From positions 128,001-192,000 of the forward strand of contig CAWCVB010000007.1 in assembly GCA_963798915.1 (NCBI GenBank): 64,000 nt of DNA, read 5' to 3'. The stretch comes from an uncultured Gemmatimonadales bacterium. GTDB taxonomy: Bacteria; Gemmatimonadota; Gemmatimonadetes; Gemmatimonadales; GWC2-71-9. The notes under the pieces are model-generated. The model saw only the letters and a program-made list of their open reading frames with translations. It ran no database searches and was not told the DNA's origin. The position numbers were made by a program, and so were the translations under genes. This document shows positions 47,094 to 64,000 of this stretch, piece after piece; position 1 is the stretch's first letter, and the number at the start of each line of letters is the position of its first letter.

Positions 47094-48383
47094 CTACGAG
47101 AACCGGCGGAACATGGCCTGGATACGGGCGATCAGCGCCGCATCCACGCCGGCCTCCCTTGCCTCCGGTTCCCAGCGTTCCAGCGATGCTTCCACCTCTT
47201 CGATGATGACGGCGCCGGCCTTCGGAACGTCGAACGCGCGGCCCACGGCCAGCAGGTCATCACGGGTGAAATCGTCGTCCTTGCCGCGGGCGGTCATCTG
47301 GTGGGTCATGGCCCACGCGCCGCCGTAGGCAAAGGTCATGTCAAAGGCGGGTGCCAGCCGCCACGCCCCGTCCGGTCCCATCAGGAAGGCGACGTTCTTG
47401 ACGTGGTCGTCCTGGTTGCGGGCCATGATGTTGAAGACCATCCGGCGATACGCCTGGTCTACCGACGGCTGTCCCATGCCCAGCAGGCGAATGGTGCGGA
47501 AGTAATCTTCGTAGGAGAGAACCTGCCTGACATTGTAGTCGGCGTGCTGAAGCCCACCCAGGCTGTGCATGTGAAGCCGAGTTCCCTCCTCGCGATCAAA
47601 GCGCCGGGTCATGAAATGGGCAAAGTTGCGCTCGCGGAGCAGGAAGGTGTCGGTCATCTCGATACCGGCCGCACCGGCCATCCGCGAATAGGCAAACTCG
47701 ATGCGCCCATAGGGACCGGGGTTGAATTCCCTGGCCAGCACGTGGCCTCCTGCTCCAGCGGACACGCCATCGAACTTGATGAGCCAGTGCTCATCATCTT
47801 TTCCCCTGGGCGCAAAGGCCGACTTCACTCGCTTTGCCTCGCGGTTCCACAGCACCAGCGCCTTGGCTCGCGCACCACCCGCCGAGGCGCCCAGCTGCAT
47901 CATTTCGGGCAGCGCCACGTCCGGGTCGCCCTCGATCACGCGACGCGCCTCCTCGACCAGCTTCGCAATGGCCAGCGCCTCGCCGGTATCACGATTCATC
48001 CGTCCCTCGAGCGGCGGCCGGAACTCCAGCGCACCCATGGCGCGGCTGCCGATGTAGAGCAGCTTCTGCACCGGACTCATGGCCGCGCCCGGTGTGCCAC
48101 GCTGCTCGAAGTAGCGCCGGATCACGGCATTGCCGAAGGCATCGGGAAGACTGTCGGCCAGGAGACCGGGCAGGCCGGCGAATGATTCGGTGCGCCGCAG
48201 CTCGGGAAAGGAGACGGGGCCACGACGCGACAGGGGCAGGTGGATGGGCGAGACTTCCAGTCCCGAGCGCCGGAAGTCCTCGCTATACTCGAACACGATT
48301 CCGCCCGTGGGATCCTCGGCGACCGCGCCAAGCTCCTGGCCCCAGAGCAGGATGCTGGCGACGGCAAAGGGTGACTCAGCCAT
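47094..48383 (-). CDS. hipA: HipA-family kinase toxin
   Basis: LLADSLPD, SAGGARAK, WLIKFD, RRFDR, NQDDHVKN, LAPAFD. Confidence 0.93.
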   Translation of the reverse strand: MAESPFAVASILLWGQELGAVAEDPTGGIVFEYSEDFRRSGLEVSPIHLPLSRRGPVSFPELRRTESFAGLPGLLADSLPDAFGNAVIRRYFEQRGTPGAAMSPVQKLLYIGSRAMGALEFRPPLEGRMNRDTGEALAIAKLVEEARRVIEGDPDVALPEMMQLGASAGGARAKALVLWNREAKRVKSAFAPRGKDDEHWLIKFDGVSAGAGGHVLAREFNPGPYGRIEFAYSRMAGAAGIEMTDTFLLRERNFAHFMTRRFDREEGTRLHMHSLGGLQHADYNVRQVLSYEDYFRTIRLLGMGQPSVDQAYRRMVFNIMARNQDDHVKNVAFLMGPDGAWRLAPAFDMTFAYGGAWAMTHQMTARGKDDDFTRDDLLAVGRAFDVPKAGAVIIEEVEASLERWEPEAREAGVDAALIARIQAMFRRFS

Positions 48384-54770: not shown

Positions 54771-54983
54771 TCAGGCGCTGGTCTTGGTGACGTTTTCCGC
54801 CGCGGGGCCCTTCTGGCCCTGCACCACGTCAAATTCCACCCGCTCGCCCTCGGCCAGGCTCTTGAAGCCCTCGGCCTGAATCGCCGAATGATGGACGAAG
54901 CAATCCTTCTGTCCGTCTTCGGGGGTGATGAAGCCGAAGCCCTTGGCGTCATTGAACCATTTCACTGTGCCGGTGGTACGCAT
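54771..54983 (-). CDS. Cold-shock protein (CspA family)
   Basis: [38 protein letters not shown]. Confidence 0.97.
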
Positions 54984-55095
54984 TGCATTACTCCTCATTG
55001 GTGTTGCGGCATCGGCGTGCGGCAAGGCCGGACGGACCGACGACGCGTGCTCGTGACATTGCCTCACGAAAGGCTGCGGCTGCTCAGTCAGCATG

Positions 55096-55673: not shown

Positions 55674-56036
55674 TCACGGGCGCCGGGCCGGCGTCTGCCA
55701 CAAAACCTCCCGCACCATCCAGACTTCTCCGTACTTCGCGAGCAGCAGGTAGTCCGTGCCCCATGAGGCCACGACCTTGGCGCTGGCCGTCTGATCCTGA
55801 ACGTCAAAAACGGTCACCTCGCGCGGCGCATCGGGCGGGGCGAACATCCTGCGCTCCCTCACGCTTCTGGTGTAAGCGATCGCCTCGGACCACGACATGG
55901 CCTCGCCGAGGTAGCGTGTCGAGTCGGACGACCACCAGAACCCGAATTTTTGCAGGTCGGGGCTGACGCTGCGGCGGAGCCGGTTCTCGTCGCCCTGATA
56001 GAAGCCCTCGACGTAATCCAGGACCGCCCGCCGCAT
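55674..56036 (-). CDS. NTF2-like (lumazine-binding-like) protein; 5' end uncertain or damaged
   Basis: RAVLDYVEGFYQGD..RL, ASAKV..WGTDYLLLAK..W. Confidence 0.75.
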   Translation of the reverse strand: MRRAVLDYVEGFYQGDENRLRRSVSPDLQKFGFWWSSDSTRYLGEAMSWSEAIAYTRSVRERRMFAPPDAPREVTVFDVQDQTASAKVVASWGTDYLLLAKYGEVWMVREVLWQTPARRP

Positions 56037-56214
56037 CCCGCCTCCGCATTCGTCGGGTAGATGCACCGCCCGAGACGAGCGAGCCCGACCTCGGCACCGA
56101 GCGCGTTGCGGAATCGAGCCGTCGTCACTTGCCAAGTGACGCCAGCGTGACAGCAGCGTCACGGGCGCCCGTATCCTGCGCTGGGTAGCACGCCGCCGAG
56201 GAGGTCGAAGCAAG

Positions 56215-59200
56215 GTGACCCAATTCATGCACAGCAGGGCTATCCTCGCGACCGCGCTGATGGGCGCGCTCGTCGCCGCCGAAGGCTGCAATCGCACGTC
56301 AGGCGCGTCGGCGAGCGACCGAACGGCCATGGCGCTCGAGCAATGCGATCCGGCCCGCTACATCCCCTGCATTCCGCAGGTCGCCTTTCTTTCCGTCCCC
56401 CTTCATGATGCCGGTCTCTATCTCACCTACTCGAGCCAGTGGGCGCCCGGCGTGTCGGGCCATCGTCCGTGGGACGTCGGCTCGCTGGGACTCGGTGGCT
56501 GGTCCATCAATCCCATTCAGCGCTATGACACCGCCCAACGGGTGCTCTTCAGCGGCGACGGGTCCTGGCGCATCGCGAGCAGCGTGCGACTTCCGTCGGA
56601 TGAGCGAGTCGTTCCCAGCTACGACGGAGCACTCGCCTACGTCTTCGATCCCGCTGGCCGCCATGTGCGCACCATGGACGGCCACCTCGGCACCGTGCTG
56701 CTTCACATCGAGTACGACGCTGTTGGCCGTCTGACCAGCATCGACGGATCGCTCGACGGCGCTCCGGCGCACCTGTCGGTCCAGCGCGCACCCGACGGCA
56801 CGGCGCGCGCCCTCGCGGGTACGGATGGCGGCACGACGTCGCTCACGATGGAGCCGCGTGGCCGGCTGACAGCAGTCACCAACCCCGCTGGCGCCACCAC
56901 GCGTATCGACTGGGATGAGGGCGGACACGTCGTCTCGCAGACGGATCCGCTGGGCGGGGTTGCGCACTACAGCTACGATAACTCGGGACGAGTCGTCTCT
57001 TACGTCGACGCGGACAGCGTCGCGCAACGATTCGAGCGGCACGAATCGAGCAAGAGCCTCGAGATCCGTGTATCGACCACCCTCGGCCGACACTGGACGT
57101 ATCGCGGGGAGCTTCTGGACGGCGCGATCCGCCGCACGTTCATCGATCGGGACGGTTCGATGAGCACCGAAACCGTCGACCCACGTGGCGCGCGTGTGAT
57201 CAAGCTCGCCGACGGAACGAGCTACAGCGTCGGCGCGCTGGCGCATCCAGTCTGGAGCATGTCGGCGCCGATCTTGACACCCGTGGTGCAATCCCGCCCC
57301 GACGGAGTCACAGCCCGGCGCGAGGTGAAGTACGCGCTCCAGCCGCAGCGTGGTCTTCCCTACATGCTCGCGGGATCTGTCACCACCGTTATCAACGGTC
57401 GCGCGTGGAGGCAAGACTTCGATCCTCTCAGACGCACGGTAGTGCTGGTCGGCCCCGCCGGGCGTCGCACGCTCATCACGTACGATTCCGCAGGCCGTGT
57501 GCTGAGCCACTCGGCGCCAGGCAGACCGCCGGCGGCGTATGCGTACGACGCCGCCGGGCGGATGGTGAGCGAGACCATCGGGGCGGGTCAACTCGCCCGC
57601 ACCACCCGCTACGTCTACGACGCGAACACCGGCCGGATCACTACCACCCTTCCCGACGGTGTCGTCGAGCACGCGACCGTCGACAAAGCTGGACATATGG
57701 TGCAGGCGTCCGCCGGAGACGGCTCGACGGCGATTGCAGCCTATGACGGTGGCGATCGGCTCATCCAGCTCCAACCCGCCGGAGGGGTGAGCTTCACCCT
57801 GGGCTCGAGCCCCGGCGGTCGGCCCACCGCGTTCGTGCCACCTGTCGTGCCGGGTGATTCGTCCATTGAGTCGCGCTCCTACGATCCCGATGGACAACTG
57901 ACGCGGATTGTCGGATCGGGTGGGCGCGCCGTGATGCTTTCGTACGATGACGCGGGACGGGTGAAGCGCTGGAGCTTCGATCAGGGCACGCGAACCATTT
58001 TCTACGACCCGCGAACCGGCGCGACAACTCGGGCCACGGATCCGAGCGGCGTGACCACCACCTACGGTTACGCGGGCGACCTCGCCGATCGCCTGACCTG
58101 GTCCGGGCCAATTGCTGGTTCGGTCGGCGTCACACTCGATGCGAACGGACGTCCCGCGGCCGAAGCGGTGAACGGGGCGGACACGCTGCGCTTCGCCTAC
58201 GACGGATCGGGCTTGCTCACGAGGGTCGGACCGCTGACGCTTACGCGCGACTCCGCGAGTGGGCTGGTCACGGCGACGAAGCTCGGGGTGGTCGAGACCC
58301 GGCAGACATTCGACGCGAACGGATCGCTCATGCGCGCAACGACGACCGTGCGTGGCGACGTGGTGTTCGAGCTGCGCTACACACGCGATGTGCTCGGACG
58401 AATCGCGAGCGTCAGTCAGACGACCGGCCACGGGAAGCCGTCGCGTACCGCCTACGCGTACGATGCGGCCGGTCGGTTATCTGCCGTTCGGGAGAACGGC
58501 CGACCGGCGGAGAGCGAGGGCTATGATCCGGCCGGGAATCGTGTCGCGGTGAACCGCCCGAGCGCCACCTTAAAGGCCGCCTACGACGATCGCGATCGCG
58601 CGATGACGTGGGGCTCGCGTCACTACTCATGGTCGCCCGACGGCAGCCTGACTCGGGTCATCGAGGATGCGAGCGCGACGTCGTTCACCTACGACGACTT
58701 CGGCGCGCTTCGCACGGCCACGCTTCCCGACGGGCGGGAGGTCAGCTATCTCGTTGATGCCGACGGGCGTCGTGTGGGCCGCCGGGTCGGGCGGAACATC
58801 GTCGCGGGATATCTCTATCGGCTGGATGGCTTCGTCGCCGCGGAAACAGATCCGAAAGGCAGGGTGGTCTCGCGATTCGGCTACGATGATCTGGGCCATC
58901 TCGCGCTGGTGGAGCGTGGCGGCATTGCGTACCGCGTGATAACAGATGCGGTGGGGAGCCCACTCCTGGTCATCGATTCGCGGAATGGCAACATTGCCGA
59001 GGCGATGGCGTACAGCCCGTGGGGACGCATGATGCAGGACACGGCGCCGGGGTTCACTCCGTTCGGGTTCGCGGGCGGATTGCGGGATCCGGACACCGAC
59101 CTGCTCCGCATGGGAGCACGCGACTACGAGCCAGCGACGGGGCGCTGGACGGCGGCCGATCCCCTGCGATTCGCCGGCGGCGATGCGAACTTGTACCGCT

Positions 59201-61428
59201 ATGCGGCGGGCGATCCGGTCAACCGAGTCGATCCACGCGGAATGTGTATTTCGCTGAAGGAGGTGGACATCGCCATAACTCGCGGCTTGGCGTCTCACTT
59301 ACCGGAGATGAAGGGGGAAAACGACCTGTGTCCTGACGCAGCGATCGGCACACTCACGAATCCCGCGACGCCGCAGAACAACAATCCACCTCCACCTGGC
59401 GATCCGCCGGCGGCGGGGAACCCACCAGGGAACGGCAGTCCCTTCGATTGGGGATGCAAGGGAACTATATGCGTGGGTCCGGACGGTCTGGGCTGCGAGT
59501 TCGGAAGCTGTCACAAGAACCCGTTCGGATTCACCTGCGACGCGGTGTATTGCCACGGGCCAGGCAATGAGTGGTGTTTCTACTGCTCCATGGGCGACCC
59601 TCATCTGCAAGCTGGAAACGGCGCTCGCTTCGACCTTCAGGCCGCCGGCGAATTCCTGATGGTGACCTCGCGCGATGGCGACCACGTCGTTCAGGCGCGG
59701 CAGGAGCCGTATGTCCAGGGAGCTCCGGTAACGGTCAACAGCGCCGTCGCCGCCAATCTGAGCGGCGATCACGTGGGCGTCTACGCCACCGAACCTGATT
59801 TCCTGCTGGTGAATGGCGTACCCGTCCGGCAGCTCGATATCGAGAGACGCTTGCCGCACGGCGACTCGATCGAGCGCCACGGTGGTCTTGTGATCCTCCG
59901 CTGGCGCGACGGCAGTCGACTGACCGTCAGCCGCGTCGTGAGAAGCTTGAATTACGCTTTCGTTCCCGGCCCGGGTGTCGGACCGCTGCGCGGCCTGCTT
60001 GGCGGAGCCGGCATCGACTCGCCGCACACGCTCACCAGCCGCGATGGCGCTGTCCTCCGACTCTCCGATCCCACCTTCGGGAAGAAGCTCTATCAGCAGG
60101 TCGGCAACAGCTGGCGGATCAGGCAATCCGAGTCGCTGTTCCACTACTGGCCCGGCGAAAGCACCGCGACCTTCACGAACGTGAGCTTCCCAGCCAAGCT
60201 GGTGACGGCCGCCTCGCTCTCCGCTGCGGTGCGGTCGAAGGCTGAAGCGATCTGTCGCGCCGTGGGCGTGCACACTCGGCCCGTGCTCGACGACTGCATT
60301 CTGGACGTCGGGATCACCGACCTGCCCGCCTTCGCCGCGGCATCGGTCGCCTTGGCGGCGAGCTTACCTCCGCGTCGCGCGCCGTCCGCCACCGCGTCGT
60401 CCTCGATCGCATCGCCCTCCAGCGCATTCGCCATCACGCTCGGCGATTCCGTATCTCCGAATCATCCAGCCAGGGGCGCGGGGATCATCTTGCATGCCGG
60501 GGAGAAGCAGTCGTATGCGTTTTCCGCCCCTGCGGGAACGAGCATCTTCGTCGAGGTTGGGCCGTGTCAGGGCGCGACGCCCACATTCGAGGTGCTCGCA
60601 CCGGACAGCACGCCGCTCGGCGGCACCTTCGGTTGCACCGGGTTCGGTCCGGTGCGCCTCTCCGCTGCCGGCGTTCATCGCATCGTCGTCGCCACCCTTG
60701 ACACGGGAATGGTCCGCTACCGCCTTACCCTTCGCATCGCGCCGTTCGACCAGTACGCGATCCGCATCGGTGACACGGTCTCTCCCGACCATCCCGCTCC
60801 CGGTGCAGGCATCATCACCAGCCCCGGGCAGAAACAGTCCTATGCATTCGCCGGCGTGGCGGGCCAGGCCGTGTATGTGGGAGTCGGCCCGTGCGAGGGC
60901 GCCAACCCGAGCTTCGACCTCCGCGCGCCGGACGACAAATTGCTCGGGGGCGTAATCGGCAACTGTCACGCCGATATCGGCCGGCAGGTCCTGCCCGTGA
61001 CGGGCACATACCACATCGTCGCAAGCACGGTCAACAAGACCGATGTCTCACGCTACAGCTTCTTTGTGCACACCGTTCCCGGCGATCAGCATTTCCCGGT
61101 GCGACTGCCGATCACCGTCTCTCTCGATGGTCCGGCTGCCGGATCCGGGCGCATGCGCACACAGGGGGTTCAGCAGTTCTACGACTTCAGCGCCAGCCCT
61201 GGGACGGTGGTCCATGTCGAGAGTCGCTGCAATCCGGCGTGCTCACATCTGGCGGTCCGGGTGACCCGAGCGGGCGACACTGGCGAAGGCCAGTTTCTCG
61301 ATCTGAATTATCTCAGACACGATTGGACGTTGCCGCCGGGCGGCAACTACACGATCCAAGTGCGCTCGACCGGGTTCACTGGTACATACGGCTTCACGGC
61401 GTCGCCGGCTGTGACGCGGCGTCGCTGA
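56215..61428 (+). CDS. Teneurin-like YD/Rhs repeat protein with C-terminal Cys-rich, VWD and three PPC-like domains
   Basis: GAGGAGG RBS, signal peptide, many YDxxGR repeats, Rhs core ending NLYRYAAGDPVNRVDPRG, GDPH motif, three ~105-aa repeats. Confidence 0.9.
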   Translation: MTQFMHSRAILATALMGALVAAEGCNRTSGASASDRTAMALEQCDPARYIPCIPQVAFLSVPLHDAGLYLTYSSQWAPGVSGHRPWDVGSLGLGGWSINPIQRYDTAQRVLFSGDGSWRIASSVRLPSDERVVPSYDGALAYVFDPAGRHVRTMDGHLGTVLLHIEYDAVGRLTSIDGSLDGAPAHLSVQRAPDGTARALAGTDGGTTSLTMEPRGRLTAVTNPAGATTRIDWDEGGHVVSQTDPLGGVAHYSYDNSGRVVSYVDADSVAQRFERHESSKSLEIRVSTTLGRHWTYRGELLDGAIRRTFIDRDGSMSTETVDPRGARVIKLADGTSYSVGALAHPVWSMSAPILTPVVQSRPDGVTARREVKYALQPQRGLPYMLAGSVTTVINGRAWRQDFDPLRRTVVLVGPAGRRTLITYDSAGRVLSHSAPGRPPAAYAYDAAGRMVSETIGAGQLARTTRYVYDANTGRITTTLPDGVVEHATVDKAGHMVQASAGDGSTAIAAYDGGDRLIQLQPAGGVSFTLGSSPGGRPTAFVPPVVPGDSSIESRSYDPDGQLTRIVGSGGRAVMLSYDDAGRVKRWSFDQGTRTIFYDPRTGATTRATDPSGVTTTYGYAGDLADRLTWSGPIAGSVGVTLDANGRPAAEAVNGADTLRFAYDGSGLLTRVGPLTLTRDSASGLVTATKLGVVETRQTFDANGSLMRATTTVRGDVVFELRYTRDVLGRIASVSQTTGHGKPSRTAYAYDAAGRLSAVRENGRPAESEGYDPAGNRVAVNRPSATLKAAYDDRDRAMTWGSRHYSWSPDGSLTRVIEDASATSFTYDDFGALRTATLPDGREVSYLVDADGRRVGRRVGRNIVAGYLYRLDGFVAAETDPKGRVVSRFGYDDLGHLALVERGGIAYRVITDAVGSPLLVIDSRNGNIAEAMAYSPWGRMMQDTAPGFTPFGFAGGLRDPDTDLLRMGARDYEPATGRWTAADPLRFAGGDANLYRYAAGDPVNRVDPRGMCISLKEVDIAITRGLASHLPEMKGENDLCPDAAIGTLTNPATPQNNNPPPPGDPPAAGNPPGNGSPFDWGCKGTICVGPDGLGCEFGSCHKNPFGFTCDAVYCHGPGNEWCFYCSMGDPHLQAGNGARFDLQAAGEFLMVTSRDGDHVVQARQEPYVQGAPVTVNSAVAANLSGDHVGVYATEPDFLLVNGVPVRQLDIERRLPHGDSIERHGGLVILRWRDGSRLTVSRVVRSLNYAFVPGPGVGPLRGLLGGAGIDSPHTLTSRDGAVLRLSDPTFGKKLYQQVGNSWRIRQSESLFHYWPGESTATFTNVSFPAKLVTAASLSAAVRSKAEAICRAVGVHTRPVLDDCILDVGITDLPAFAAASVALAASLPPRRAPSATASSSIASPSSAFAITLGDSVSPNHPARGAGIILHAGEKQSYAFSAPAGTSIFVEVGPCQGATPTFEVLAPDSTPLGGTFGCTGFGPVRLSAAGVHRIVVATLDTGMVRYRLTLRIAPFDQYAIRIGDTVSPDHPAPGAGIITSPGQKQSYAFAGVAGQAVYVGVGPCEGANPSFDLRAPDDKLLGGVIGNCHADIGRQVLPVTGTYHIVASTVNKTDVSRYSFFVHTVPGDQHFPVRLPITVSLDGPAAGSGRMRTQGVQQFYDFSASPGTVVHVESRCNPACSHLAVRVTRAGDTGEGQFLDLNYLRHDWTLPPGGNYTIQVRSTGFTGTYGFTASPAVTRRR

Positions 61429-61555
61429 CGCGTTCCACAGGGTTTCCCGCGCGCGCGAGCCGCAACCCGGAGTAAAACCCATGAGGTGGCCGATGCGGAC
61501 AGAGTCAATTGCACTCCAACCAGGAGTTGCGTGCGCGGACAGTGCCCTCCGATAT

Positions 61556-62629
61556 ATGCGCGGGCATCGCGGGCTGGCACTGGTGCTGCTTTGTCTCGTG
61601 GCGGCGGCATGCACGGGCAGGACACGAGACCGCGCCTCGGGGCAGGCCGTCGCGTTGCAAGGGAAAGGCGACGCGACACGTGACGACCCCTGCTCGCTGC
61701 TCGACGTGAGCGACGTTGCTGCGGCCATTGGCCCACTGGCGGGACCGCCGTATCGCGGCGACCCAAACCCCGATCCCTCGAGCGACGTGTGCCGATACGA
61801 GACAAATGATTACCGCCGCATTCAGCTCTCTGTGGATTGGACGGGCGGCGCGATGGCGATGAAGATGGTGGCCCTCGGCCGGCGCCTCGGGGACAAGGCG
61901 CTCCAGGCGGAGACACAGACTGGTATCGTTCTCAAGGCGGGCGATACGCTGCGCGGCGACTGGGATCAAATTGCCTTGTCGCCAGCCTCCTGCTGCTCAC
62001 TCGACGCGCTCCGGGGCGACGCGGACGTGCAGCTCGACTGGACGGGGACGCGCCTGACCATCGCCGCCGCGGGCGCGCTGCTCAATTCGGCCATCAGGCG
62101 GCTGAACCATCGGCTGGCGATTGACGGCACGGCCGGCGAAGCAGCGGCGAAGCAGCGTTGGGCGGCAATGGCGCAAGACAGCGCGCTCGACGCATGCGGG
62201 CTCGTCTCCCAGCAGGACGCCGAGGCGATTATCGGAACCCCGCTCTCGGTGCCGCCGGACCATGGGTCGGCGCAAGAGGGCCCGCGCCGCACGTCCTGCT
62301 ATTATCGCACGCCGATGCCGAACGCGCCGAACGCGGCATTCGTGTACGAGATCGACCTGAAGGAGTGGAGCGATGCGCACGCGAAGTTCGCGGAGGACGA
62401 GTTCGTCATCAACGGCGCCGTGGGCGGGATCCGACGTCAGTGGTCGGGCGGCGACTCCACCACGCCCGCCGAGGCCCCCGAACCGCCGGGCCCCTGGGAC
62501 GAGATCGGGTCCTCCGTGAGTGGGGGTTACCAGGCGGTCAAGGGCCCGCTGCTGCTGGCGGTGTCCACCAACGGAGATCATACCAGAGCACGGGCGCTTC
62601 TGGCCAAGGCAGTCAGCGCATTGCAATGA
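61556..62629 (+). CDS. Lipoprotein with two tandem DUF3558-like domains
   Basis: Lipobox VAAAC; DPCSLLDVSDVAAAIG...CRY and DACGLVSQQDAEAIIG...CYY. Confidence 0.7.
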   Translation: MRGHRGLALVLLCLVAAACTGRTRDRASGQAVALQGKGDATRDDPCSLLDVSDVAAAIGPLAGPPYRGDPNPDPSSDVCRYETNDYRRIQLSVDWTGGAMAMKMVALGRRLGDKALQAETQTGIVLKAGDTLRGDWDQIALSPASCCSLDALRGDADVQLDWTGTRLTIAAAGALLNSAIRRLNHRLAIDGTAGEAAAKQRWAAMAQDSALDACGLVSQQDAEAIIGTPLSVPPDHGSAQEGPRRTSCYYRTPMPNAPNAAFVYEIDLKEWSDAHAKFAEDEFVINGAVGGIRRQWSGGDSTTPAEAPEPPGPWDEIGSSVSGGYQAVKGPLLLAVSTNGDHTRARALLAKAVSALQ

Positions 62630-62640
62630 AAAGTCTCTGA

Positions 62641-64000
62641 TTAGCCGCCTGTCCTACGTGCGCGGGCCTGCTTGAGCGCTGCGACGCGACGCTGGATTGC
62701 TTCGATGCGCGGGCGGAACTCGGGATCGGCCGAGCGCCACGCGGAAAGGACGCGCTGGTAATGAACGAGCGCGCTGTCCGGCTCGGCGGCGCGCTCGAAC
62801 GCCTCGCCAAGGACGGCGTGCAGATCGGTGTAGGTGAGATAATAGTTCGACGCCTCGATCGGACCGCGCAGCGGCGCGCGGAGCACCGGAATGGCGTCAC
62901 GCGGCCTTCCCTCGGCCAGGAGTGCCTTCCCCAACTCGAGATTCACCCGGCTGTATCCCTCGATCGGCGCAACGAATGCCCGGCGGAACTCTCGCTCCGC
63001 ATCGGCTGTCCGACCCCGGGCTGCGACGAGGAGCCCGCGCACGTAGTGCTGAAGCACCTGGTCGCGGAAATACGCGCTGTGCGGAGCCCATGAGGCGAGG
63101 CTGTCGGCGAGCGCTCCCAATCGTGCCGTGTCTCCGGCCGCGGCGAGCGCTGTGGCTGCCTGTGTGGTCATCCAGATTTGATGGCGCGCGACGAGCCCCG
63201 GCGCGTCGGCGGTAAACGTCGGCGACGATCGCCATCTGTAATTGCCGATTGAGTCGAACAATGCTGCAGCTTCATGAAAGCGGCCCATCTCGAACATCAC
63301 TTGCGCCACGGCAACGGCGTCGAGCGACCTGGGGGTGTTGAAGCTGGGTAGCTCGCCTTCGGTGGTTCGTACCATGCGCTCCGCGGTCGCGAGCGCATCG
63401 CGCAGGCGCCCCTGGTTCCGCAGACTGATCACGAGCCACCACAGCGCTTCGCCGCGCTTGGCCGGGTTCCCGTTCTGTGCCCGATCCGCCAGCATCCGAT
63501 CCGCGACGGCGAACTCCCCCGAGCGGACGGCGATCAGGACGCGGGGCATCACCGCATCGTATCCGCTGGGAGCGACGCGTTCGGCGCGTTGCTCCGCGGT
63601 GAGCGCGCTATCGTACCGTTCCTCCCGCCCGAGTATCGATGTCAATGCCCACCATGCCGCCACCGCGTTGGGTTGCATGCGCGTCCAATCGCGCGCCGTT
63701 CGTTCAGCGGCTGCCACGGAATCCGCGGACAGGTACGTCGCGAGGAGCATGTACAGGGCGTCGCACGCGCGGCACCAGGGACTGCGGCCGATGAGGCTCA
63801 GCGAATCCAGGCGAACCGCACGACGGAGATGTGGCAGCGCGCCGAGAAAATCGCCGCTCCAGGATCTTGCGCGACCGAGCGCCAGTTCGCTGCCCGGCTC
63901 GTCCGGGTACCGCGTGACGAGTGATTCCGCGATGGCGAGTTGCGCCGGATCATTCGTGGTGTAAGCCCACGTCTGCCGAATGATCACGCGTTCACGATCG
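62641..64000 (-). CDS. TPR-rich C-terminal part of a large protein, 5' end outside the window
   Basis: Frame is open to the edge; Ala/Leu-rich TPR-like helices, ending ALVHYQRVLSAWRSADP. Confidence 0.75.
   Translation of the reverse strand, partial: DRERVIIRQTWAYTTNDPAQLAIAESLVTRYPDEPGSELALGRARSWSGDFLGALPHLRRAVRLDSLSLIGRSPWCRACDALYMLLATYLSADSVAAAERTARDWTRMQPNAVAAWWALTSILGREERYDSALTAEQRAERVAPSGYDAVMPRVLIAVRSGEFAVADRMLADRAQNGNPAKRGEALWWLVISLRNQGRLRDALATAERMVRTTEGELPSFNTPRSLDAVAVAQVMFEMGRFHEAAALFDSIGNYRWRSSPTFTADAPGLVARHQIWMTTQAATALAAAGDTARLGALADSLASWAPHSAYFRDQVLQHYVRGLLVAARGRTADAEREFRRAFVAPIEGYSRVNLELGKALLAEGRPRDAIPVLRAPLRGPIEASNYYLTYTDLHAVLGEAFERAAEPDSALVHYQRVLSAWRSADPEFRPRIEAIQRRVAALKQARARRTGG

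Follow-up and report, generated by a model that had tools for sequence, protein, structure and literature searches.

Rhs proteins and bacterial teneurin-like proteins (TLPs) have been described as shells with a terminal, enclosed cargo, and the 2026 TLP paper (PMC13018210) reports that the bacterial shell showed no exit, leaving release unexplained. Regarding VWD domains in bacteria, a myxobacterial protein has been termed the first bacterial vWD example (PMC12419801), and bacterial MIIA domains are known to undergo GD/PH cleavage induced by calcium (PMC6506597). Here, we describe a gene in which a VWD domain follows an Rhs core, located in a stretch of 64,000 nucleotides (nt), referred to as the window, from an uncultured Gemmatimonadales bacterium (GCA_963798915.1, contig CAWCVB010000007.1, positions 128,001 to 192,000). 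The gene (56215..61428, + strand, with a possible alternative start at ATG 56227) is a single open frame of 1737 amino acids (aa). Judging from the sequences compared, its layout is real, widespread, and apparently undescribed, and it represents a variant of the Rhs/teneurin shell proteins in which the polymorphic slot is internal and a second self-cleavage site is predicted. The initial annotation had singled out the architecture as its best candidate for an undescribed system, and our literature search likewise found no description of a VWD after an Rhs core, although it did not extend to the supplements of the Aravind-group papers, which could list the architecture. The 11 supplementary files of PMC13018210 contained no mention of VWD, Willebrand, GDPH, or PF00094 (one picture PDF was unsearchable), and no vWD appeared in the examined text of PMC3482391.

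The encoded product is a probable lipoprotein, and all of its features lie on the + strand. A signal peptide ending at C25 (56215..56289), with an imperfect lipobox and a probable lipid anchor, precedes a teneurin-type plug (residues 42-124; 56338..56586) that contains a C44/C52 pair and lacks the FN3 domain. The YD/RHS shell (56587..59010) is fused straight onto the plug, without an NHL propeller, and is followed by the Rhs-associated core (TIGR03696; 59011..59244). Next comes a variable internal segment, C1011-D1128 (59245..59598), composed of a unique stretch of 36 aa, a Pro/Asn/Gly linker (59353-59448), and an 8-Cys module (59449-59595). A GDPH motif forming a predicted Asp-Pro self-cleavage site (59593..59604) lies within the region assigned to a VWD domain, which is Cys-free after GDPH, and a helical C8-like domain with two cysteines (59575..60369). 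The protein ends with three beta-sandwich repeats of the PPC/collagen-binding fold (60427..61425) and has no C-terminal anchor. A lipobox-like cysteine was present in 33 of 46 parsed N-termini of the family, the window protein failing the strict pattern, and genes encoding LspA and Omp85 are present in the host genome. The family set comprised 213 stored proteins, 82 of them with both core and VWD; 79 of these were parsed and are referred to as the window's group, P0006, P0162, and P0202 being left out as their core pattern was not parsed.

The best PDB match of the shell was the Bacillus inaquosorum teneurin-like protein (BiTLP; E 5e-93). In the structure comparison, model residues 1-970 aligned to residues 713-2144 of 9IFO (Z 42.5, root-mean-square deviation (rmsd) 2.0, 943 aligned), and the Pfam and NCBIfam searches returned RHS_repeat (PF05593), PF25023 (TEN_YD-shell) over its cut-off, and TIGR03696. 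Using the family profile, the window protein was aligned to BiTLP residues 718-759 (weakly, -2.9 bits), 886-925, and 1247-2161. The teneurin plug has been defined as a 44-aa insertion plus a 38-aa extension (PMC5851990), and since the two N-terminal segments matching BiTLP fit these lengths, the plug is taken as kept. The FN3 domain of the FN-plug is absent, as BiTLP 760-885 has no counterpart, and so is the NHL propeller, the alignment skipping from BiTLP 925 to 1247 and just 124 residues preceding the shell. On the evidence of the model, the shell is a stripped-down teneurin-type YD shell with the plug retained. The TLP plug autocleavage serine is conserved in none of 51 members, so the shell should stay attached to its N-terminus; the plug-to-core length is 957-972 aa in all 51 parsed members. 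The Rhs signature noted in the initial annotation is intact (GRWTAADP at 976, D1006PRG at 59230), R969, D982, and D1006 being invariant in 70 of 70 aligned sequences and spaced as R2103/D2116/D2140 of BiTLP. Since the BiTLP chain breaks after L2144 (PMC13018210), the register places the cut after M1010 rather than within DPRG, where it had been expected, and the core is very probably cleaved at this position. The wall exit opening was not located, the predicted local distance difference test (pLDDT) score being below 50 past the core in the shell model and local alignment giving no help. Alignments of the shell model to teneurins reach model residue 1170-1180, which may have been learned from teneurin structures and was not counted.

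The tail past the core measures 728 aa in the window protein and 449-975 aa in the 79 relatives. Pfam and NCBIfam gave no match in the last 730 aa of the window protein (no VWD, no PPC), and a PDB sequence search with the tail alone gave no significant match. However, a profile of 70 family sequences matched FCGBP, MUC2, VWF, and MUC5B, and the relatives P0033 and P0051 matched PF00094 above the cut-off. The AlphaFold model of the tail (mean pLDDT 83.8) matched VWF with Z 22.9 and rmsd 2.8 over 233 aligned residues, and its alignments to FCGBP D10 and RGMB begin at P1129, opposite their residues 4081 and 169. The VWD identity proposed for residues ~1125-1320 is therefore established via profile and structure, despite the lack of a direct Pfam match. 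The quoted tail motifs are also in place: G1127DPH at 59593, FDLQAAGEF at 1139, GNSWRI at 1297, AEAIC at 1343, and DDCILDV at 1359, the last two belonging to the helix likened to C8, in a helical domain with only two cysteines. In the window copy, residues G1127-H1130 form GDPH with the glutamine Q1142 at D+14; in FCGBP, the aspartate, the histidine, and the D+14 glutamine affect cleavage (PMC10880436, section 2.4). The D+14 glutamine was found in 76 of 79 members of the window's group and D-P-H in 34, and shell-less bacterial VWDs also vary at the motif (DPH in 81/121). For the window copy, a cut at D1128/P1129 is likely. No cysteine occurs between 1125 and 1346, and the VWD is Cys-free in 76/79 proteins of the window's group, so the interfragment disulfide of FCGBP- and mucin-type VWDs is missing here. 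The initial annotation linked VWD and GD/PH to animal proteins, but they are not specific to animals: bacterial VWD modules are common (2758 matches at E<=1e-10 for the tail, with many modules above the Pfam cut-off), and GD/PH cleavage is known from MIIA (PMC6506597). The same VWD module was observed behind M23, M48, or M91 peptidases, OmpA, or NIDO, or with Hint domains (P0061, P0095, P0124, P0135, P0165, P0200, P0202). These occurrences suggest that the bacterial VWD may be a general carrier or release module.

The three terminal repeats start near 1406, 1515, and 1629, repeats 1 and 2 being 47% identical. In agreement with the predicted beta-sandwiches, their models match the PPC/collagen-binding jelly-roll fold (Z 11-13), including the collagenase PPC domain 5SV5 (Z 12.0) and PliG (Z 12.9). 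PPC (PF04151) gave no direct match on the window protein and was above the cut-off in the relative P0025. Because PliG and GOLD folds score like PPC, the ligand is unreadable from the fold; the adhesin role in the form first stated came from the fold only and is not retained in that form.

The region between the core and the VWD differs strikingly in conservation from its flanks. The segment from the core to GxxH spans 67-269 aa (median 131, n=79) and 118 aa in the window protein. Ordinary tails of related YD shells have a median of 138 aa (n=39; Mann-Whitney p 0.92 against the segments), and the internal linker of teneurins has 126 aa (PMC5851990). Identity and tree work was based on the 69 near-full-length members, which collapse to 52 at 70% shell identity. 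Between P0019 and P0031, identity was 0.89 in the shell, 0.70 in the VWD, and 0.21 in the segment; the corresponding values were 0.82, 0.93, and 0.28 for P0057 and P0058, and 0.77, 0.88, and 0.24 for P0042 and P0045. The initial annotation treated the ~730 aa as one oversized cargo; by sequence comparison, the tail is two things, a hypervariable segment the size of a toxin tail and a conserved VWD-PPC module. A Cys-rich class, in which a Pro/Asn/Gly linker is followed by a module with recurring C-x4-C spacing, accounts for 41/69 segments, the window's included, and a Gly-rich beta-type class for 11/69; among the remaining classes, some carry a strongly hydrophobic helix just before GDPH. A likeness of the beta-type segments to outer membrane protein (OMP)-like TLP tails was considered and not confirmed above shuffles. 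The Cys count is even in 77/79 segments, and with Cys-free VWDs this means that no covalent tie would join the two sides after the Asp-Pro cut. In the AlphaFold model, residues 1010-1076 have pLDDT <50. The Cys-rich module of the window (59449-59595) appears to be built from short repeats that contain C-x4-C pairs and turns of the P-x-G type, relatives having 6-16 cysteines; it gave no family match and is possibly a small disulfide solenoid. The payload of the window copy is more suggestive of a disulfide-rich recognition peptide than of an enzyme toxin. Weak phmmer matches, with E values of 6e-4 to 3e-3, lay close to those of reversed controls, and the best ESM Atlas scores, obtained for a beta-type segment (0.81) and for residues 1010-1400 (0.79, VWD clusters), serve as leads only.

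Taken together, we consider the chances about even that the protein is a surface-anchored capsule of the Rhs/teneurin type with a polymorphic cargo slot in mid-chain. Export would proceed via Sec, probably with a lipid anchor at C25, and the plug and YD repeats would fold into a closed shell resembling that of bacterial TLPs. The chain past the core would run for ~100-130 residues inside the shell and exit by way of an opening in the wall, as it does in teneurin and SGS1, with the VWD-C8 and PPC repeats folding outside and the VWD probably resting on the shell. By simple arithmetic, the segment occupies 16 nm3, the segment with VWD-C8 51 nm3, and the whole tail ~97 nm3, compared with a TLP cavity of ~44 nm3 (PMC13018210). 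The segment alone thus fits, the two larger units do not, and the tail must exit the shell, as the initial annotation had argued for its cargo. The core would cut after M1010 and the VWD could cut at D1128/P1129, and with no disulfide between the sides these two cuts would make the 118-aa segment a separable peptide. The pattern of identities indicates that the segment would be swapped by recombination between conserved flanks. The complex prediction of the shell (41-770) with VWD-C8 scored 0.44 against 0.00 for the best control, the runs sharing at least 88% of contacts with a partner pLDDT of at least 83. In the calibration, the mark was reached by 116/157 solved and 2/215 mismatched pairs, and at scores <=0.60 those reaching it comprised 18 solved pairs and both mismatches; the prediction thus lends weak support to docking of the VWD on the shell. 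Regarding function, we see a slightly less than even chance that the segment acts as a contact-dependent payload or identity element against neighbouring cells or surfaces, with VWD-PPC as an external binding module that would hold, aim, or extract it.

In the window's group, the named carriers include Acidobacteriota, Chloroflexota, Dormibacteraeota, Actinomycetota, and one gammaproteobacterium. The tail was present in none of 100 relatives of the host, and the Rhs-VWD gene is a sporadic accessory gene. Family genes broken into two or three open reading frames (ORFs), either assembly errors or pseudogenes, were seen at loci L006, L007, and L009. A sister clade in Acidobacteriota (L012, L028, L040, L041, L075) has proteins of ~1330 aa with a terminal tail of 112-127 aa and the plug directly on the shell, with no room for NHL; L012 retains the plug serine. 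This clade is likely an intermediate between TLPs and the Rhs-VWD family.

A search with the P0202 VWD, a query that selected for VWD and not for position, returned 105 proteins; 102 were analyzed and 46 had an Rhs core, all 46 with the VWD 101-210 aa past it. Three of these belong to the window's group, and the other 43 form a second group (Nitrosomonas, marine proteobacteria), whose shells lack the plug and are preceded by Ig, cadherin, or Calx-beta domains and followed by PKD or RTX repeats. The VWD is Cys-free in 41/43, and the segments (median 141 aa, n=43) are complex rather than low-complexity. In all 37 close pairs among 16 proteins, identity was 0.67-0.89 for the shell, 0.72-0.93 for the VWD, and 0.11-0.29 for the segment. 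The P0257 segment shows homology with an ordinary terminal Rhs tail (E 1e-8, compared with 0.005 for the best reversed control). D-P-H is kept in 37/43 of this group compared with 34/79 of the window's group, a difference whose Fisher p of 3e-6 is overstated because the sequences are not independent. RTX tails suggest C-terminal type I secretion, which would explain the need for an internal cargo slot in this group. The layout recurs, with a segment of 134 aa, in a protein encoded on a Nostoc HK-01 plasmid, and cultured carriers of the second-group layout are Nostoc HK-01, Nostoc C052, Nitrosomonas marina, and Marinobacterium profundum. Nitrosomonas marina has two VWD giants, one without a shell and one fused to Rhs (P0215, P0221), which are both listed with a 21,527-base contig and are possibly neighbours. 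No second-group loci were found in 401 genomes of one betaproteobacterial order, a search without a positive control, and gene neighbourhoods of this group were available from two plasmids only. A single clade for all Rhs-fused VWDs was rejected (approximately unbiased (AU) test on 35 of 99 VWD rows, p-AU 4.6e-5), which means, for these sequences, repeated fusion, or fusion followed by later shell losses. More tentatively, these observations could define a class of internal-cargo Rhs capsules that evolved repeatedly, with a swappable ~130-aa peptide enclosed and flanked by the Rhs aspartyl autoprotease on one side and a self-cleaving Cys-free VWD on the other, adhesion or secretion modules C-terminal of the cargo that are cut away or extract it, and no immunity gene. 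The window's lineage, which combines a minimal teneurin shell with external C-terminal domains and includes members that lose one or the other cut, would then be a living bacterial model of the passage from an enclosed toxin to a teneurin-like adhesion receptor.

Several observations weigh against an internal cargo slot. Asp-Pro is missing in 45/79 proteins of the window's group (21 GEPH, 24 DTH), with ~20 changes of the GDPH motif on a 69-tip tree. This frequent loss means that the second cut is not essential there, and the two-step processing first proposed is no fixed trait of the group; both sites carry residues known to matter. In FCGBP, the GDPH cut can serve simply to stabilise the fold (PMC10880436). 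The deep members P0143 and P0162, and also P0152, have an apparently decayed catalytic motif in the Rhs core and keep GDPH, which is preceded by a strongly hydrophobic helix. The segments are of low complexity, with a G/P/N/S fraction of 0.50 compared with 0.29 in ordinary tails, their net charge is zero or negative in 71/79, and transmembrane-like stretches are not commoner than in ordinary tails (12/79 and 7/38). No Pfam toxin domain was found on the segments, a profile of 13 Gly-rich beta-type segments scored ordinary tails no higher than shuffles, and segment similarity across the two groups was not above reversed controls. The Cys module adjoins the VWD and starts 1-7 residues past the core in P0045, P0080, and P0093, a poor fit with a module folded inside and a VWD outside, although, once the first cut is made, the segment may slide out. 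Finally, no recurring small downstream gene was found in 48 loci with an ORF filter that is heuristic, trained on the large gene, and may miss small atypical genes.

Many of these points would suit a shed or tethered adhesin, a reading close to that of the initial annotation. The segment would then be a weakly constrained, flexible leash or stalk, the VWD-PPC adhesin or matrix protein would be released or loosened by the Rhs cut, and GD/PH cleavage would be an optional stabilisation of the fold. The acidic, low-complexity segments, the lack of toxin domains and of an immunity gene, the loss of Asp-Pro, and the two deep members without the Rhs catalytic motif, like teneurins, all favour it, as do the 2-4 PPC-fold repeats in 72/79 members and the shell-less occurrence of the VWD-PPC module behind M23 or M48 peptidases. 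Nevertheless, a leash need not show distinct sequence classes exchanged between shells 79-89% identical, the second-group segments are complex and one of them is a real homologue of an Rhs tail, and a 970-aa shell with an invariant protease would be a costly release device; we regard this explanation as less likely than the internal slot, but as a serious rival to it. Covalent stapling, in which the GD/PH cut leaves an Asp anhydride at the C-terminus of the segment for ligation to a glycan or protein, as in ITIH heavy chains or FrpC, while VWD-PPC positions the reaction and then leaves, appears improbable. It draws on the Cys-free VWD-like domains of ITIH, which are released while the terminal Asp binds a glycan (PMC11670116, section 7; PMC8267560), the VWD here being likewise Cys-free, but the FCGBP anhydride is simply hydrolysed (PMC8267560), and the known route is closed to GEPH and GDTH members.

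A classical polymorphic toxin with cognate immunity from the downstream gene is, in our estimate, more doubtful still. The closest shell is that of the toxic BiTLP, a toxin facing the periplasm would require a lipoprotein immunity protein, and a same-strand gene for a two-repeat DUF3558-like lipoprotein of 382 aa (61481..62629, +) starts 53 nt past the stop of the Rhs-VWD gene. However, its family is conserved (104 matches, many carrying DUF3558, the named ones from Gemmatimonadaceae or Gemmatimonadales), it occurs in 8/100 relatives, all without the tail, and no homologue lies beside the Rhs-VWD gene in the 47 other loci. This lipoprotein gene is probably not a cognate immunity gene, and neutralisation by it, which the initial annotation had named as a possible refutation, is unlikely, as it does not look like one. 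An assembly chimera or recent non-functional fusion, to which a dip in GC content at third codon positions (GC3; 0.63-0.67 across the segment vs ~0.78 elsewhere) might point, has a negligible probability given the identical layout in 79 + 43 parsed proteins, the constant plug-to-core length, and the presence of RHS repeats in 59 of 70 proteins retrieved with the tail, counting the window protein itself. No sequencing run is listed for the locus, which speaks neither for nor against a chimera.

Regarding the neighbourhood, the 48 loci include near-duplicates, fragments, and shell-less cases. A same-strand ORF lay within 200 nt downstream in 12, none recurring beyond near-duplicates, and an upstream same-strand ORF was present in 11, 7 of which had a lipobox-like motif. 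Small secreted proteins or lipoproteins were encoded just upstream at L006, L083, L088, L089, L008, and L011; one upstream small-protein family without a Pfam match recurs in four loci, and two upstream genes have weak DUF3558 matches, like the gene downstream in the window. No immunity gene is annotated next to the Nostoc HK-01 gene, and in Nostoc C052 an 86-aa ORF follows 205 nt after the gene. In the window, the Rhs-VWD gene is flanked by genes encoding a HipA-family kinase (47094-48383, -), presumably a cold-shock-like protein (54771-55094), a lumazine-binding-2 protein (55674-56090, -), and a TPR protein (62641-64000, -); the cold-shock-like gene is also on the - strand. Promoter and terminator scans gave chance level only. 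The host genome (84.8% complete) showed no VipB match and has two further Rhs loci (G000 C6:7557-15216 and C11:84074-92505) whose tails are ordinary and which are followed downstream by additional core-plus-tail cassettes.

If the internal cargo slot is true, it would provide a bacterial case of teneurin/SGS1 threading with the polymorphism in a mid-chain slot. Two questions become testable in cultured strains, namely by what route a YD shell gives up its cargo and what GD/PH cleavage achieves where the pieces are not linked by a disulfide. A minimal shell with a tolerant slot of 70-270 aa could also serve as a protein capsule.

When compared to known systems, the hypervariable post-core cargo of polymorphic toxin systems is present here, but internally. 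The closest shell, BiTLP (PDB 9IFO/9PT5; PMC13018210), shares the plug, the R/D/D autoprotease, the signal peptide, and a post-core segment of ~15 kDa. In contrast, the window protein lacks FN3, NHL, the N-terminal adhesin domains, and the plug autocleavage serine, and no cognate immunity gene was found for it. BiTLP is a closed shell with terminal cargo, whereas the window chain runs on for ~600 aa past the cargo slot and thus departs from the TLP trait of a ~15 kDa terminal, wholly enclosed cargo. With the GDPH-cleaving VWDs (FCGBP, MUC2, RGM), it has in common the VWD fold, GDPH in register, the histidine, and the D+14 glutamine. Unlike in FCGBP and RGM, and as in ITIH, there is no interfragment disulfide (PMC8267560, PMC11670116); TIL/E modules are also absent, and the domain sits behind an Rhs core. 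Bacterial MIIA (NopE, VIC_001052) has the same motif and is likened here by that motif. Metazoan teneurins (PMC5851990) share the plugged YD shell, an internal linker of 126 aa, and external C-terminal domains, but their core is uncleaved, FN3 and NHL are kept, and they end in ABD/Tox-GHH, while the window protein ends in VWD-PPC. The teneurin-like threading initially suggested stands insofar as the tail must leave the shell, although mosquito SGS1 (PDB 8FJP; PMC9935623) is the closer topological precedent, with its Rhs autoprotease site, encapsulated segment, mid-wall exit, and second cut removing the C-terminal domain. The second cut of SGS1 is at a putative furin site, whereas that of the window protein is a predicted autocatalytic Asp-Pro cleavage; the inner segment of SGS1 is conserved and rich in transmembrane stretches, whereas that of the window's family is polymorphic, and the bacterial shell is smaller. 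By analogy, the best-supported topology would be an SGS1-like arrangement in a bacterium, with a self-cleaving VWD replacing the furin site.

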